A stretch of DNA of 63,940 nucleotides, the filler included. It is 6 parts of 6 records of this genome, joined end to end, with 100 filler letters (N's around TTAATTAATTAA, not from the genome) between each part and the next. Parts side by side here need not be neighbours in the genome. Positions count along the whole stretch, not along the records: positions 1 to 29,038 come from SRR20825010_1669; 5 more parts are not named here. The stretch is one strand, 5' to 3'. The position numbers and the translations under genes are program-made. A model generated the notes under the pieces. It ran no database searches, was not told the DNA's origin, and worked only from the letters and a program-made list of their open reading frames with translations. This document shows, one piece after another, positions 2,975 to 60,500 of this stretch. The stretch's first letter is position 1, and each line of letters begins with the position of its first letter.

Positions 2975-3048
2975 AGTAACGAGGTACGGGTAACGAAAAC
3001 CGGTAACCGAACAGGCTTTTCGCAACGCGCACCTCGCTTCTCGTCACT
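2975..3048. repeat. Short 7-nt-periodic inverted-arm element
   Basis: AGTAACG-AGGTACG-GGTAACG ... CGCAACG-CGCACCT-CGCTTCT-CGTCACT. Confidence 0.5.
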
Positions 3049-23223: not shown

Positions 23224-23633
23224 GTTTTCAAATACCTTGATTTTCATCAACTTAACGGCAAAGCCAATCGCCACCCCCGATTTCACGCGCCCGCTTATTG
23301 CCCAGCGAGCACCGTTGTGAATCAGCCCCGGCTCACCAAAATGCATCACCGCTTTGCTGCAACAACGGTTTCCGCCCACAAACACCGCGCTTTGCCCCGC
23401 CCTGGTGAAAAAACCACGCCCCGTTTACGACCAAGGGCGTATTTATCACTGAGGTGAATGATGAACATCATTCGAATGATAAGGCCGAAAACGCCACGGC
23501 CTGTTAGGCTGCGCGCTGCATTGCGGTGGTGGGGAACATCCACAATCGTTAGAGACCTTGGGTACCTCTGAACAACCCCTTGCAGGAACGTGCTTGCACG
23601 CGCCGGCAAAAAAGCCAAAACGGAATCGTGTTG

Positions 23634-24785
23634 ATGAACGCAGACAGAGATCACCTGCTCACCGCCATCGCCGGCGCCTTCAGTCTGGTTATTGCCCTGG
23701 GCATTGGCCGCTTCCTGTTCACCCCGGCCCTGCCCGACATGATTGCCGAGACGATGCTCACCGCAGTCAGTGGCGGCTACCTGGCCGCCATCAACTACGG
23801 GGGGTACCTGGCCGGCGCCATGCTCGCCATGGCAGTGCCGGCCCACCGGGCACGCACCGCGTTCTGGCTGGCATTGTGGGCAAGCGTAATCACCAGCATC
23901 CTCATGGGGCTGAGCACTACCTTTACGCCCTGGGCCATTAACCGGTTTCTCGCAGGTGTGGCCAGCGCCATCATCATGGTCAACGGCTCCGCGCTGGTAC
24001 TGGGCGCCATGCCCAATCACCTGCGTGCCCGGCTGGGCAATATTCACTATGCCGGCATCGGCCTGGGCATCAGCATCGCCGCCCTCACTGTTGCCTTTAT
24101 TGAACGCCTGCACGGTAGCTACACCACCATGTGGCTCGCCTGTGGCGTTCTGGCCCTGATCATTCTGCCGCTGCTGCGCCGCATCCCCGCCCTACCCCAC
24201 GCCAAGCACAGCCAGCACGAACGCGCGCCGGTGAACCGCTCGGCTCTGGGCTTTCTGATCGCCAGCTACACCCTGGCCGGCTTCGGCTACATCACCAGCA
24301 CCACCTACCTGCCGGTAATCGCCAAGGCGCTACTGCCGGGCCTGGACAGCGCCGCCTTCTATACCTGGCTGGCCGTGGGTCTGGCCGCCGTGCCCGCCAA
24401 CCTGCTGTGGGGCAAGCTCGCCAGCCATGCCGGCGAACGCAACGCGCTCATGGCAGCCTTGCTAGTACAGGCTGTGGGCGTCAGCGCCCCCGCCTGGCTA
24501 CCAGGCCTCGCCGGGCTGATCATCAGCGGCCTACTGGTGGGCGCCACCTTTACCGCCGTGGTTGCCCTGAGTATGTACTGCGGCCGCCAACTCGCCCCCC
24601 ACGCCGCCAGCGCCGCCCTGGGCGCATTAACCGCCTGCTATGGTGTCGGGCAGATACTGGGGCCAGTCGTAACGGCGCGGCTGCTGGAAAGTAGTGGGAG
24701 TTTTACGCCTGGGTTGTTGGGGGCAGCGGCGGCGCTGATCGGGGCGGCGATGCTGTTGGTGCCGTTGGGGAAGGTGCGGTTTTAG
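23634..24785 (+). CDS. YbfB/YjiJ-family MFS transporter
   Basis: GIGRFLFTPALP, NYGGYLAG, GFGYITSTTYLP, YGVGQILGP; about 12 TM. Confidence 0.88.
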   Translation: MNADRDHLLTAIAGAFSLVIALGIGRFLFTPALPDMIAETMLTAVSGGYLAAINYGGYLAGAMLAMAVPAHRARTAFWLALWASVITSILMGLSTTFTPWAINRFLAGVASAIIMVNGSALVLGAMPNHLRARLGNIHYAGIGLGISIAALTVAFIERLHGSYTTMWLACGVLALIILPLLRRIPALPHAKHSQHERAPVNRSALGFLIASYTLAGFGYITSTTYLPVIAKALLPGLDSAAFYTWLAVGLAAVPANLLWGKLASHAGERNALMAALLVQAVGVSAPAWLPGLAGLIISGLLVGATFTAVVALSMYCGRQLAPHAASAALGALTACYGVGQILGPVVTARLLESSGSFTPGLLGAAAALIGAAMLLVPLGKVRF

Positions 24786-25180
24786 GCGCGGCTCACGGCC
24801 TGCTTGCGTACCTGCAATGGCATCGCCGCAAACAGCAGCAGGGAGGCGAGATAGGCCATACCGGATACCGGGTCACGCCCCGCCAAGTAGTCGCCCAGGT
24901 CCTGCCCTTGAAACAGTGTCACCGCCAACTCGGCGCTCAGCATCATCAACAGGGCCGGCAGGCCAGTGCCAATACACTGCCTCACCGTTACCAACCCAAA
25001 TCGGCGCACCAGCCAGCGGGCCACCAGAAAACTGGCCAGCACCATGAAAGGCAATTCAACCAGCTCAGCCCAGCGCTCCCCAATTCGCGGCACCAGGAAG
25101 GGAATCCGGATCATGGCCAGGGCGAAGCCGGTGACAAAGATCAGGATGAAGTCGATGAGAGCGGGTTTTATATGTCGCAT
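24782..25180 (-). CDS. Hypothetical membrane protein
   Basis: 132-aa ORF with about 4 hydrophobic segments (LVPRIGERWAELVELP, RDPVSG). Confidence 0.7.
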   Translation of the reverse strand: MRHIKPALIDFILIFVTGFALAMIRIPFLVPRIGERWAELVELPFMVLASFLVARWLVRRFGLVTVRQCIGTGLPALLMMLSAELAVTLFQGQDLGDYLAGRDPVSGMAYLASLLLFAAMPLQVRKQAVSRA

Positions 25181-25253
25181 TTGGAGAACCGTCTTAGTAT
25201 TACTCTATGCCTTAACAGTGCGGCAAAAGCATCCAAATAAAAAGTATCAACTC

Positions 25254-25327
25254 CAGATCTCGCATTTCTCAGTCCTGCACTTTTATAAACAGTAAAATGA
25301 AAAATGAAAAATGAGAGACCCAACCGC
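25254..25327. repeat. Degenerate copy of the GGGGTCAGGTCTC-type inverted-repeat element
   Basis: CAGATCTCGCATTT ... AAATGAGAGACCCAACCGC resemble the two arms at 26328-26399; includes (AAAATGA)x3. Confidence 0.5.
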
Positions 25328-25345
25328 GAATTCCATACTGAAAAT

Positions 25346-26149
25346 CTACGCCCAGTCAGGGTGATTGGGAATCTTGACCGCATAATTTTTTTTACAGGCC
25401 TCTGCTTTATATAGCTGAATATCCGTTCCGTTATTTTTATTCAAGGAGTCAACTATTGTTTTTAGATTACCGTAATTATTTTGGCTTATTTTCATGCCCG
25501 CAATGACTGACGTTACAAGCCTATCTCGGTGATAAAGATGGATACCTGGCCCCCGGTTATGATCGTACACCCTCCGCTCCATTTCGTAAGCCCACATATC
25601 TGATTTGGAGTAGATAAGTTTATTCAAGACATCATGATCACTATCGACGCCATACGCTATCTCCGGCCTTTGAGATTTGTACTCAACCGGTAAAGCCAGA
25701 AGGTTTTGGCTCCATTCTTCTACTTCTTTCCCGCTTACAACTAATGGAATATCAAATTCCACAACAAATCCGGTATGGAATCCGGCGTAATGTGACCACA
25801 TAAGGATGCTGTCCGCTTTTTCAGAAAGGCTTACTACGCCGACGCCAGAAAGTATATTCTCAAGGTGATCACTTCTCATTATATGCTTCTTTATTTTCTT
25901 GGATATTCTCTTTTTCTGTTGAATCCTCTGCGCTGGCGAAAGGCCTCCTTTTCGAGCAATTTCTTTTAATAGGTCCGGCCTCGTTCTGTAGATTTTATTT
26001 AAAGCCTCCTCGTTATATGACGGCCGGCAATCAAATGGGTCATTGAAATCTAACGGGCAGGTGTACTTAATCGTACTTCTTGTTAGTACACAGCACGACC
26101 CTTGATCATAGGGCAAATATTTGTAGAGCTTTATCGATTTCTTATCCAT
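25346..26149 (-). CDS. DUF2971 domain protein
   Basis: FNDPFDC, SILMWSHYAG-x-HTGFVVEFD, KS-x-x-WAYE-x-ERR; visibly AT-richer than flanks. Confidence 0.85.
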   Translation of the reverse strand: MDKKSIKLYKYLPYDQGSCCVLTRSTIKYTCPLDFNDPFDCRPSYNEEALNKIYRTRPDLLKEIARKGGLSPAQRIQQKKRISKKIKKHIMRSDHLENILSGVGVVSLSEKADSILMWSHYAGFHTGFVVEFDIPLVVSGKEVEEWSQNLLALPVEYKSQRPEIAYGVDSDHDVLNKLIYSKSDMWAYEMERRVYDHNRGPGIHLYHRDRLVTSVIAGMKISQNNYGNLKTIVDSLNKNNGTDIQLYKAEACKKNYAVKIPNHPDWA

Positions 26150-26327
26150 CTCATCTTCTAAGGCTTTTGTGAAATACTCGACGTCCTAAGCGTCAGCTCT
26201 CTTACTTCTAAGATATTACCTGAATTTACTGGGACAGACTGATACCCGTCTTGATCGATGCGGCAAGCCTCAGGGTTTACCGTAAGATGGTACGAGGACA
26301 CCTAAACCCACAACGCAAACCCACAAA

Positions 26328-26399
26328 GGGGTCAGGTCTCCCATTTCCCGTTATTGGAGTCCACATGGGGCTCGCCTGGGAAATGAGAGACCTGACCCC
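26328..26399. repeat. 22-bp inverted-repeat element (GGGGTCAG / STIR-like)
   Basis: GGGGTCAGGTCTCCCATTTCCC ... GGGAAATGAGAGACCTGACCCC, 21/22 complementary, 28-nt spacer; preceded by direct repeat AAACCCACAA x2. Confidence 0.75.
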
Positions 26400-26510
26400 G
26401 CATTCTTGCGCCGTGAAAGAGTGTTCTGGTAAAAACAAGCTCATCACCTTCTATGTAGCGATGTCCAAGAACGCGGCCATCCTTGTCATCGTGATCTTCC
26501 TGCCCTATGT

Positions 26511-26558
26511 GTATAACGCTGCCAACACGCGCTTGTCGCGTGCTTGGCCTTGTTCTGT
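26511..26558 (-). mobile_element. attC-like recombination site 2 (48 bp)
   Basis: Minus strand ACAGAAC-AAGGC-CAAGCACG-CGACAAGCG-CGTGTTG-GCAGC-GTTATAC: R''/L''/L'/R' with an extra base at L'' position 4. Confidence 0.8.
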
Positions 26559-26562
26559 GTTT

Positions 26563-27120
26563 TTAATGAGTTGCCATATACCATGAGTACGAAACAGCCT
26601 GCTTAAATTCTAACGTCACATCCTGACTAGAAGATTTAAGAGCCAACGACAAAGGCGTTTCGGCGGCAAAGCCAATCCAAACATGCTTCCCAGGAGAAAT
26701 ATAACGCTCCGTATTATCTAGGCCTTCTAGCATACCAGCGTCTATAGCAGGGTATCTTTGGAAGCTAGCCTTGATCGTCTCACTAGAATTAGCAATCAAG
26801 AGCGGGCCAGAACCGCTATTCGTTATTTTTACCCATTGATAGGGCCTAACCACCTCATATCCATCAACGGGATAAAGAGGAATAACGAGCCCTTTCGCTA
26901 CAACTTTTGAATGATGGTCAATTGAGCATACTGAGATCAAGACATCACCAGATGAAATTATCACCTCATTTTCGGCACCAAATTTAATCGAATTATCGAA
27001 GTAGCCACAGGCGGAATCAGACCGTCTTCCATCTTGGCTCGACACTATCAGATGAGAGCCCTTTGAAAGAGAACAGCCTGTAAGAAAGCCCAAGGTAATA
27101 ATTGCGATTATTATTTTCAT
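26563..27120 (-). CDS. Cassette-borne hypothetical lipoprotein
   Basis: MKIIIAIITLGFLTGC lipobox; AT-richer; bounded by GTTCTGT and ACAGAAC. Confidence 0.8.
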   Translation of the reverse strand: MKIIIAIITLGFLTGCSLSKGSHLIVSSQDGRRSDSACGYFDNSIKFGAENEVIISSGDVLISVCSIDHHSKVVAKGLVIPLYPVDGYEVVRPYQWVKITNSGSGPLLIANSSETIKASFQRYPAIDAGMLEGLDNTERYISPGKHVWIGFAAETPLSLALKSSSQDVTLEFKQAVSYSWYMATH

Positions 27121-27126
27121 ATTGAT

Positions 27127-27178
27127 ACAGAACGCCTAGCACAGCCGCCGAAGGTCGACCTGCTGCTTATTGTTAGTG
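27127..27178 (-). mobile_element. attC-like recombination site 1 (52 bp)
   Basis: Minus strand CACTAAC-AATAA-GCAGCAGG-TCGACCTTCGGCG-GCTGTGC-TAGGC-GTTCTGT; the gene's TAA stop lies in R''. Confidence 0.8.
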
Positions 27179-27547
27179 CTCATGATCTGACTCGATGTAC
27201 TTGTAATCAGATAAGAAATCGACCTTACCCCCACACGAGCACGTATCGATACTTTCTTCACGAACAACCCTTTCACACTCAATACAAAATCTTTCCGAAT
27301 TCATCCTTTTCCTACGGAAATATATATACACCACGAGGTAAGCACCGACACCCCAAATAGCATAGACATGTAGCCGACCAAACATCTCACCCCAGCTCAA
27401 CGGGTCAGGGCTTCTGAATTTTGAAATCCCTATTTTATCTGAGAAAGCGATAACTACTGGCAAGAACACGGCAGCAAAAGCAGCGAACCCTTTAGCACTG
27501 CTTTCGCGCTCCATCGACAGATCAAACTCGTTTCGTTTTACCCACAT
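27173..27547 (-). CDS. Cassette-borne hypothetical 2-TM protein with C-terminal Cys cluster
   Basis: Two hydrophobic segments, then CIEC...CSCGG zinc-ribbon-like motif; bounded by GTTAGTG and CACTAAC. Confidence 0.75.
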   Translation of the reverse strand: MWVKRNEFDLSMERESSAKGFAAFAAVFLPVVIAFSDKIGISKFRSPDPLSWGEMFGRLHVYAIWGVGAYLVVYIYFRRKRMNSERFCIECERVVREESIDTCSCGGKVDFLSDYKYIESDHEH

Positions 27548-27557
27548 AGCTAAGAGT

Positions 27558-27607
27558 CACTAACAGCGTATTCAGTCGAACGATTCGACATATCTTTCTT
27601 CGACATA
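27558..27607 (-). mobile_element. attI-like site heading the cassette array
   Basis: Minus strand TATGTCGAA-GAAAGA-TATGTCGAA-TCGTTCGACTGAATACGCT-G/TTAGTG: core GTT with two 9-nt direct repeats upstream and no attC-type hairpin. Confidence 0.6.
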
Positions 27608-27759
27608 ATTCTTTTAAGGCTTTCGGGGAAAACACAGAAATTCGCATGACCGCCAGGCTCTTACAGTAAAAACAAGAACCCTTCTCGTCTGACAAAACTC
27701 GAAGAAGCGGCCTATTTCCTGACTTCCCCCGATATCACCCCATTCTGAAAACCACTCTA

Positions 27760-27798
27760 TATCAACCGCTTAGCATTTTCTGTAAGCCATATCCTACA
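27760..27798. promoter_or_regulatory. IHF site plus TGTAAG-N6-CCTACA palindrome upstream of the cassette array
   Basis: TATCAACCGCTTA (27760-27772) fits WATCAANNNNTTR; TGTAAGCCATATCCTACA (27781-27798) is one mismatch from the GacA box TGTAAGN6CTTACA. Confidence 0.45.
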
Positions 27799-27923
27799 AA
27801 GATATGGCTGGTTCTGTTGAGCACGGCAGTGGCTTCAGCTCCTTCGCCTTGCGAGCAAAGCTGCAACGAGGGTTGAGGCGATGGAGGGCTTGGGGGTAGG
27901 GCGCGGTTGGGGAGCCTCAGGGC

Positions 27924-28922
27924 TCACGGGGTGATAGTGAACCGCATGACGCCGATGATCTGGTTATCTGCGGTGCGCACCTCTACCCGCCAGCGCCCCT
28001 CTGATGGCACAGGAATATGGCGCTTGTGGGACCAGGTGCGAAAACCCGATTCGCGGCCACCGGTGACTTTAAGGGGAATCCTGTCCACCTGTTCGCCATC
28101 ACGAAACCAGTAGTGATACACCTCTTGCCCTAACCCCAATGGTGCCTTGATGGCCGTGTAGGCATACAACCCTTCTGCTACCTCATCGGCACTGAACACC
28201 TCTCCACTCACCAGCGGCTTGCGCTCGGCGCGATTGAATGACAAGGCCACGGCACGTTCCTGCAGCGAGAGGGTCAGTGGTGGCACCAGCGGGGCCAACC
28301 AACGTGGGGCTAACGCGATCAGGCACGAGACCAGGATCAACCCGAGCCAGCGAAACCATTTTCGTGGGCCGCCAAATCGCCAGAAGCTGGGCAACGCAAA
28401 CAGGGCCGTGAGCCAGCCGGCCCAGGCCAGCGCTGAATCCGTGCTCCAGTGGAAGATCAGCGGCAACAGCACCAGCAACGCCACAAATAACGCCCAGGCG
28501 TGAAAGCCGAAATACAGCGCCCGGTGCCGGGACAGCCAGAAGTAGACCGGATCGATGATGCTGATGGCCGCCGCGCTCACCACCAACGTGGTGAAGAAAA
28601 TATATTCCGCGCCGCCAGACCATTGCAGCAGCACGAACGGCAGACTGAAAAAGAACGCCTCCTGATGCACCGCCTGCAACAACAGTTTGAGCATGCCCTG
28701 GGGCAGGCCATCAAAACGGGTGCCGATCACCTTGTTCTGCCAGATCCCCTCGGTGAGCAGCAAGAGCCAGCTGAACACCAGCAGCCCAGTCAGCACCGCC
28801 GCCAGCCAGGGCTGCCGCTCCACCAGAAAATAACTGCTCAGGCCCAGCGAAAAGCTGATCAGCGCCCAGACATGGCGAATCTGATAGAGCTTGTCCGTGA
28901 GGGTTTGTCGCGTCAGTGGCAA
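27924..28922 (-). CDS. Membrane protein with C-terminal DUF2914-like domain
   Basis: HQEAFFFSLPF TM region; YAYTAIKAP, GGRESGFRTWS, GRWRVEV C-terminal motifs. Confidence 0.8.
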   Translation of the reverse strand: MPLTRQTLTDKLYQIRHVWALISFSLGLSSYFLVERQPWLAAVLTGLLVFSWLLLLTEGIWQNKVIGTRFDGLPQGMLKLLLQAVHQEAFFFSLPFVLLQWSGGAEYIFFTTLVVSAAAISIIDPVYFWLSRHRALYFGFHAWALFVALLVLLPLIFHWSTDSALAWAGWLTALFALPSFWRFGGPRKWFRWLGLILVSCLIALAPRWLAPLVPPLTLSLQERAVALSFNRAERKPLVSGEVFSADEVAEGLYAYTAIKAPLGLGQEVYHYWFRDGEQVDRIPLKVTGGRESGFRTWSHKRHIPVPSEGRWRVEVRTADNQIIGVMRFTITP

Positions 28923-29038: not shown

Positions 29039-29138
29039 NNNNNNNNNNNNNNNNNNNNNNNNNNNNNNNNNNNNNNNNNNNNTTAATTAATTAANNNNNN
29101 NNNNNNNNNNNNNNNNNNNNNNNNNNNNNNNNNNNNNN
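29039..29138. other. Artificial contig spacer (also 35461-35560, 42743-42842, 57058-57157, 60399-60498)
   Basis: N-run + TTAATTAATTAA (stops in all six frames) + N-run, 100 nt each. Confidence 0.99.
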
Positions 29139-35460: not shown

Positions 35461-35560
35461 NNNNNNNNNNNNNNNNNNNNNNNNNNNNNNNNNNNNNNNN
35501 NNNNTTAATTAATTAANNNNNNNNNNNNNNNNNNNNNNNNNNNNNNNNNNNNNNNNNNNN

Positions 35561-42742: not shown

Positions 42743-42842
42743 NNNNNNNNNNNNNNNNNNNNNNNNNNNNNNNNNNNNNNNNNNNNTTAATTAATTAANN
42801 NNNNNNNNNNNNNNNNNNNNNNNNNNNNNNNNNNNNNNNNNN

Positions 42843-57057: not shown

Positions 57058-57157
57058 NNNNNNNNNNNNNNNNNNNNNNNNNNNNNNNNNNNNNNNNNNN
57101 NTTAATTAATTAANNNNNNNNNNNNNNNNNNNNNNNNNNNNNNNNNNNNNNNNNNNN

Positions 57158-60398: not shown

Positions 60399-60500
60399 NN
60401 NNNNNNNNNNNNNNNNNNNNNNNNNNNNNNNNNNNNNNNNNNTTAATTAATTAANNNNNNNNNNNNNNNNNNNNNNNNNNNNNNNNNNNNNNNNNNNNTC

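Follow-up and report, generated by a model that had tools for sequence, protein, structure and literature searches.

A probable integron cassette array behind an attI-type platform without an adjacent integrase in Alcanivorax

Clusters of integron cassettes without an integrase gene are common, and their origin and activity are debated, with relics, rearranged pieces and insertions at genomic sites all having been considered. The window analysed here (the whole stretch of 63,940 bases) holds one such cluster on the minus strand of an Alcanivorax chromosome, at 25.2-27.8 kb, where two small cassettes with attC sites of 52 and 48 nt stand without the integron integrase gene intI. This raises the question of what these cassettes were docked onto, and of which enzyme could have placed them there. 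The region is very probably an integron cassette array behind an orphan attI platform, a paralogue of the alpha-type integrase-proximal region of the genus, from which intI is missing.

Platform and cassettes between two conserved genes

The array forms a low-G+C island (40-50%, compared with 59% for the whole window) between a DUF5924/DUF2914 gene and an MFS_4 transporter gene. Its main features, including the open reading frame (ORF) of each cassette, are as follows.

27561..27829, minus strand: attI-type platform (alpha) without intI, assigned by homology to intI-attI intergenic regions
27133..27563, minus strand: cassette 1, 431 bp, comprising a 124-aa ORF and attC site 1
27127..27178, minus strand: attC site 1, 52 nt, type B, with R'' CACTAAC and R' GTTCTGT
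26517..27132, minus strand: cassette 2, 616 bp, comprising a 185-aa predicted lipoprotein and attC site 2
26511..26558, minus strand: attC site 2, 48 nt, type A, with R'' ACAGAAC and R' GTTATAC

The initial annotation had described an integrase-less array with very short attC sites. Its description holds in that the cassette array is genuine, but it overlooked the attI-type platform that heads the array at 27561-27829. This stretch is homologous to the sequence between intI and the first cassette in seven relatives (G017, G014, G004, G002, G016, G009 and G024), where some 200 bp separate it from the integrase match, and a DNA search of 41 related genomes found the 270-bp stretch starting exactly at GTTAGTG to be multi-copy. 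Its cassette-side end is the crossover GTT at 27564-27562. The attI core contains the direct repeats ATGTCGAA at 27606-27599 and 27591-27584 and an inverted repeat at 27589-27575, and this highly conserved core continues from these repeats into ..AATACGCT.

In an alignment of 29 platform copies, six of which are located beside intI, homology stops at GTT(A) and the sequence after GTT differs in every copy, while the distal edge falls at the same point in all of them, corresponding to 27826-27829 in the window. The attI core pattern has 60 matches, distributed over 22 of the 24 Alcanivorax genomes surveyed, and none in a reversed control. By coordinates, seven of these cores lie beside an intact intI, one lies beside a remnant and 52 of the 60 lie elsewhere, and platforms recur one to six times per genome. 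Among the orphan copies whose surroundings were examined, 10 of 13 are followed by at least one attC site in the right orientation, and no intI remnant was found beside orphan platforms other than a 39-aa C-terminal piece in G022. The stretch at 27561-27829 is read, from this homology, as a putative orphan attI platform and a paralogue of the alpha integrase-proximal docking region of the genus. With an attI-type platform at its head, the array would therefore be more than a cluster of attC sites.

The complete genome G022 carries attI cores with arrays at 943650, 1838816, 2636840, 2930075 and 3072681. It has no intact integron integrase, and the 39-aa remnant lies beside one of these five cores. 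In a metagenome contig from run X11 the distal end of the platform is joined directly to the DUF5924 stop (27827/27924), skipping the 96-nt spacer, so that the platform's distal limit acts as a discrete junction. At several unrelated loci with orphan copies (L058, L059, L061 and L065), a motif resembling repetitive extragenic palindromic (REP) elements (GTAGGAGC...GCGAACC) is found about 40 nt beyond the distal end of the platform. Inspection by eye revealed no convincing LexA-type box at the distal edge of the platform.

The motifs that delimit the cassettes lie on the minus strand exactly where the initial annotation had placed them, and the reciprocal end-matching it described is confirmed, R' and R'' being exact complements for both window cassettes. 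The platform-side junction heptamer GTTAGTG (27564-27558) precedes the 124-aa ORF (27547-27173), the TAA stop of which lies inside CACTAAC (27178-27172). GTTCTGT (27133-27127), which closes attC site 1, precedes the 185-aa ORF (27120-26563), which is itself closed by ACAGAAC (26558-26552), and attC site 2 ends in GTTATAC (26517-26511). The cassette sizes of 431 and 616 bp result from cuts at G|TT. The 124-aa product, in which two predicted membrane helices and a C-terminal Cys cluster were read by eye, has no family match in Pfam, NCBIfam or PADLOC. The 185-aa product, which carries an N-terminal lipobox signal peptide (MKIIIAIITLGFLTGC), also has no family match in these three collections; only 11 relatives, all without a name, were found among 5.8 billion clustered proteins, and none in species-representative genomes searched by pattern and tblastn.

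A genus-wide family of attC sites

The boxes of both window sites are arranged as R''(7)-5-L''(8, extra base at position 4)-inner-L'(7)-5-R'(7), as had been claimed, and the top-strand G previously noted as the extrahelical base is seen at L'' position 4 in each. The two sites differ in the length between the L boxes, which is 12-13 nt in attC site 1 and only 9 nt in attC site 2. The latter folds far better than shuffled sequences on either strand, its bottom strand as single-stranded DNA reaching -12.9 kcal/mol (z -4.0) with a minimum-free-energy shape that consists of R pairing, an unpaired spacer, an L stem and one bulged base. A loose pattern scan for attC geometry gave hundreds of chance matches and was replaced by covariance models.

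In the search of the 41 related genomes, both window hairpins recur at 93-100% identity in many places within one genus. An alignment of 17 sites, comprising the two window sites and 15 from relatives, has 93.6% of its cells paired, and seven of the eight pairs of the L-stem show compensatory changes on both sides. The covariation score was reached by none of 500 shuffles, and controls with slid partners lose pairing. A covariance model of these 17 aligned sites (R1) matched 83 sites at 31 loci in 316,882 bases of relatives, co-oriented in arrays, and a further model (R2) was built from those 83 relatives' sites only. The R1 scores of 49.6 bits for site 1 and 62.7 bits for site 2 are those of seed members of the model. 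With R2, which contains neither window site, site 2 scored 38.4 bits (E 1e-7) and site 1 scored 37.8 bits (E 1.5e-7), so that a custom model drawn from relatives alone detects both, and the next match on either strand of the 63,940 bases was only at E 5.2. No third attC site was found in the window, there being no GTATAAC partner downstream and nothing beyond E 3-5 with R1 or R2. Rfam is without an attC family, and the region gives only two sub-threshold chance matches in it.

The family sites range from 48 to 114 nt, in addition to one doubtful 38-nt match, and 35 of the 83 are no longer than 56 nt when the doubtful match is counted in. All 83 share the layout of R''/R' boxes, 5-nt spacers and L''/L' boxes with the extra base on the R''-L'' arm. 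On the top strand this base is G in 70 of the 83 sites, C in nine and T in two, with a gap in the remaining two, and the 48-nt type has this single extrahelical base and no second unpaired one. The R boxes, described in the initial annotation as non-consensus, are a peculiarity of the window copy, the consensus across the family being the usual ..TAAC / GTTA... Across six consecutive cassettes in G019, each R'' is perfectly complementary to the upstream R'. R2 also detects the aadA1 attC site on plasmid R100 at its exact coordinates (17 bits), and the Alcanivorax family is therefore built like canonical attC sites.

The window attC sites are, as judged from this covariation, members of a genus-wide family conserved as structure. 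Since the base-bearing arm and the crossover in R' are both canonical, we infer ordinary bottom-strand recombination with an unusual base. Short attC sites do form a class, in that the family has 48-52-nt members across the genus, but they are not peculiar to satellite arrays. Family arrays, short sites included, directly adjoin intI at five loci (L023, L025, L027, L028 and L029), and at L025, in G004, the first two cassettes beside intI carry sites of 48-52 nt.

Cassette exchange and the source of the integrase

Nineteen loci syntenic with the window were compared from the MFS gene to the DUF5924 gene. The platform is kept whole or in part at 14 of them and is absent from the syntenic locus in G008, G021, G013, G014 and G017, and attC matches are present at nine (1, 2, 2, 4, 6, 3, 1, 2 and 1 sites, respectively). 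Every species examined has a cassette content of its own at this locus, some of the relatives with differing content having about 90% DNA identity, and all 11 aligned platform junctions continue differently after GTT. The cassette with the 124-aa ORF is also present in G003 on another contig, where the ORF is 92% and the attC site 98% identical but the platform only 73%, and identity between G003 and the window breaks at the GTT junctions on both sides of the cassette. In G007, the sequence found after attC site 2 of the window stands behind another attC site, of 72 nt.

Assembled contigs from public sequencing runs, used for sequence content only, extend this comparison to closer strains; stretches that some runs leave uncovered were given no weight. 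A 2,612-nt contig from an RNA-library run matches 26514-27749 with eight differences and then has 444 other letters to the end of the MFS gene; as it diverges past site 2, a near-identical strain therefore differs right after its GTT. Another run has the platform and the DUF5924 end with a different first cassette. The comparison across relatives thus bears out cassette turnover exactly at G/TT, with other cassettes both in other species and in the strain variant of about 99% identity. Together with covariation, reciprocal ends and arrays linked to intI, this exchange at GTT marks the locus as a genuine integron cassette array.

The junction with the platform bears on the possibility that the cassettes were inserted at a genomic secondary site rather than at attI, by the attC x attG route to a cluster, or a lone attC site, that has no integron-integrase (CALIN or SALIN). 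Experiments with class 1-3 integrases have demonstrated this route, and small CALINs have been proposed to originate from it, in the part of the preprint available (bioRxiv 10.1101/2022.09.11.507474). It is very improbable here: the junction ends a 269-bp element that is homologous throughout to the integrase-proximal region of true integrons and that recurs ahead of other arrays; it does not fall at a random place in the genome.

The statement that no integrase lies beside the array was upheld over the whole window, in which tblastn with the IntI of a relative gave nothing better than E 3.4, and no intI is present at any of the 19 syntenic loci. In the genus, the integron integrase model TIGR02249 exceeds its curated cut-off in 20 of the 24 genomes, by contrast with the 14 control genomes, in none of which it does so. 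Three integrase/attI types, alpha, beta and gamma, were distinguished, the alpha attI being the type of the orphan platforms. The beta integrase is 67-68% identical to alpha and the gamma integrase 44-47% identical, and all three attI types share ..AATAC(G)CTGTTA at the crossover. Beta platforms are present at L101, L102, L028, L026 and L029, and gamma platforms at L027 and L104. The beta platform has a clear CTGT-N8-ACAG (LexA-type) box beside the intI start and the direct repeats GAGTTATG.GGA.

From these sequence comparisons we infer service in trans by a distant IntI. Excision of a cassette from an array, an attC x attC reaction, requires no attI, and would be carried out by an IntI whose gene lies elsewhere in the genome or that is provided transiently. 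Insertion would proceed by attI x attC recombination, with the folded bottom strand as substrate, as site geometry and junction positions suggest, and the same distant IntI as enzyme. The locus would then be a satellite capture-and-display site of a distributed integron, in which conserved blocks of the platform probably supply the promoter for the first cassettes. In the wider form of this proposal, which is tentative and which we place somewhat short of an even balance, one integrase (or none at times) would serve one to six scattered platforms, each with its own array, using minimal attC sites that contradict the rule of a conserved extrahelical G.

Several observations weigh against an orphan platform with an array served in trans. 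The nearest relatives of the window (G001, G010 and G020) carry a beta integrase, and the beta attI has only the last ~12 bases in common with the window platform. According to the part of the literature consulted on this point, attI is recognised only by its cognate integrase (PMC2095811). The alpha integrase is present in G024, also a close relative. In G001, the nearest relative of all, intI is in two overlapping pieces in different frames. A simple scan for sigma-70 promoters gave none in the platform. The distal third of the array is without a closing attC site, as searched with R1, R2 and the GTATAAC motif, and looks decayed. The bottom-strand folding anticipated for both attC sites is evident for site 2, but the window copy of site 1, at -4.8 kcal/mol (z +0.3), folds no better than shuffles; its close homologues fold better, the L025 copy at -11.4 (z -2.9) and the L097 copy at -8.9 (z -1.3). 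Some of the between-species differences in content could also have arisen by homologous recombination between platform or attC sequences rather than by IntI.

The strongest of the alternatives is a dead relic, in which a complete integron lost its intI, the array has since been static, and the differences among relatives either predate the loss or stem from homologous recombination and deletion. The absence of intI from all 19 syntenic loci, the decay of the distal array and the split intI of the nearest relative agree with such a history, as do the mutation of the platform-junction GTT in three of the 11 syntenic copies (L039, L043 and L044) and the five attI cores of G022 with nothing but a 39-aa intI remnant. 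A one-off deletion at this locus cannot, however, explain why orphan copies at many loci share one distal boundary. Relatives of ~90% identity and the 99%-identical strain variant differ exactly at GTT, and one cassette is common to non-homologous copies of the platform, both of which argue against a static array. A relic is therefore considered unlikely, and a cassette array behind an orphan attI platform remains the preferred explanation.

Least credible of all is that the hairpins are ordinary REP elements or bidirectional terminators with coincidental end-matching. In favour of this, site 2 has convergent reading frames on its two sides and a T-rich plus-strand tract after it, site 1 folds no better than shuffles and a true REP-like hairpin is present nearby. 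It is refuted by the covariation, the R''/R' boxes, the arrays next to integron integrases, the exchange at GTT and the textbook attC site found by the same model.

Relation to described integrons and distal features of the locus

A CALIN is a cluster of attC sites without an integron-integrase (Cury et al. 2016, PMC4889954, here and below for the parts of the paper available). The window array is of this kind, having at least two co-oriented attC sites and no intI nearby, and the combination of intI adjacent to attI and array that defines a complete integron is not present in the 63.9 kb. Unlike a CALIN as described, it has an identifiable attI-type platform at its head, paralogous to the integrase-linked one. 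Because Cury et al. deem attI not searchable, stating that it is unknown for most integrons, the attI layer is absent from their CALIN survey. That a distant IntI is able to excise CALIN cassettes is stated both in that paper (PMC4889954) and in the passages seen of bioRxiv 10.1101/2025.06.18.660453.

The latter preprint describes Xanthomonas CALINs, which resemble the Alcanivorax case in being integrase-less arrays at the same locus across species. Unlike the Alcanivorax arrays, they are interpreted there as remains of activity in an ancestor, their content being the same throughout a pathovar, and no attI copy is reported for them among the passages seen. The Vibrio cholerae repeat (VCR) array, an example of a sedentary chromosomal integron, is similar in being chromosomal and in having a homogeneous, genus-wide attC family, mostly unknown cassette genes and a gene of defence type. 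It differs in that sites of the VCR type are long and bear a terminal structure that is large and branched, whereas many Alcanivorax sites are of 48-52 nt, and in that the Alcanivorax system is split over several integrase-less platforms rather than forming one large array. The variable terminal structure of the VCR is of 65 bp (Bouvier et al. 2009, in the part available).

At the level of single sites, the 60-nt aadA1 attC of R100 has the same box order, 5-nt spacers, 8/7 L boxes, position of the extra base (the fourth of L'') and location of the crossover (R') as the window sites. It has 20 nt between the L boxes, compared with 9-13 in the window sites, and unlike them a second unpaired base, and its extra base is C on the top and G on the bottom strand. 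In the passages available of Bouvier et al. (2009), attC sites have two or three extrahelical bases, the first of which is an 'absolutely conserved' bottom-strand G. The Alcanivorax family departs from this, having one such base in the 48-nt type and, in 70 of its 83 sites, a top-strand G with C on the bottom strand. The attC length quoted in the literature, as far as seen, is 57-141 bp, and the window sites, at 48 and 52 nt, fall below it; the variable part is given as 20-100 nt in Cury et al. (2016, PMC4889954). Oceanospirillales attC sites were modelled by Ghaly et al. (2021, seen in part), and sites this short may occur in the supplementary lists of published data sets. Literature searches on Alcanivorax integrons, orphan or solo attI and short attC sites returned nothing specific, and within the literature searched neither orphan attI platforms as a family nor attC sites of minimal design are described, the array itself being of the CALIN kind.

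In the debate on integrase-less clusters Alcanivorax offers a clean natural case, with a recognisable docking site, a position conserved across species and content that varies at the exact recombination point. With a conserved platform and content differing at GTT, service in trans is therefore directly testable. The 48-52-nt sites are natural minimal attC substrates with one unpaired base of the 'wrong' identity, and this unusual base bears on strand choice by IntI and on the design of synthetic attC sites. If the distributed-integron reading is true, its minimal attC sites (48 nt, 9 nt between the L boxes and a single extrahelical base, C on the recombined strand) break the rule that the bottom-strand G is conserved and that there are two to three extrahelical bases. 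The array also contains a candidate anti-phage gene (PDC-S31), in keeping with the recent idea that chromosomal integrons store defence systems.

This gene lies in the distal part of the array, the features of which are listed here with the flanking genes.

27924..28922, minus strand: DUF5924 + DUF2914 core gene that flanks the array, a conserved neighbour of the platform
25217..26516, minus strand: decayed distal part of the array, no recognisable closing attC site
26149-25346, minus strand: 267-aa DUF2971 / PDC-S31 gene, in the decayed distal part
25210..25216, minus strand: GTTAAGG, an R'-type junction ahead of the 132-aa ORF
24782..25180, minus strand: 132-aa membrane ORF, 60% G+C, abutting the MFS gene
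23580..24785, plus strand: MFS_4 / YbfB-type transporter, a core gene that flanks the array and is convergent with it

The window has ten masked runs of 44 N, in pairs, at 29039-29138, 35461-35560, 42743-42842, 57058-57157 and 60399-60498, none of which is inside the array or less than 1 kb from it. After attC site 2 there is a remnant start of a cassette shared with G007. Relative to L033 of that genome (9184-9547), 26409-26522 has a 243-bp in-frame deletion between short direct repeats, and the reverse-oriented ORF that bears this deletion, at the start of the third cassette, has a frame that runs into attC site 2. A hairpin at 26326-26402 has perfect arms of 22 nt, which form a short repeat dispersed in relatives and also found inside other arrays, and it looks like a REP element or a miniature inverted-repeat transposable element rather than an attC site. 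Along its whole length, the 267-aa DUF2971 protein matches PDC-S31, a candidate anti-phage defence family of PADLOC (E 1.6e-45).

GTTAAGG (25210-25216) is the R' of a 62-nt attC site in G012, while in the window only a half-attC-like remnant is present upstream of it. The 132-aa ORF is present in some relatives and missing from several others. As it lies behind GTTAAGG and is absent from several relatives, it appears, from its sequence context, to behave as the last, cassette-like unit of the array. In L039 (G019), a 35-nt copy of the 3' end of the MFS gene is located upstream of the 132-aa ORF unit (2979-3013), a duplication which suggests insertion of this unit where the MFS gene ends.

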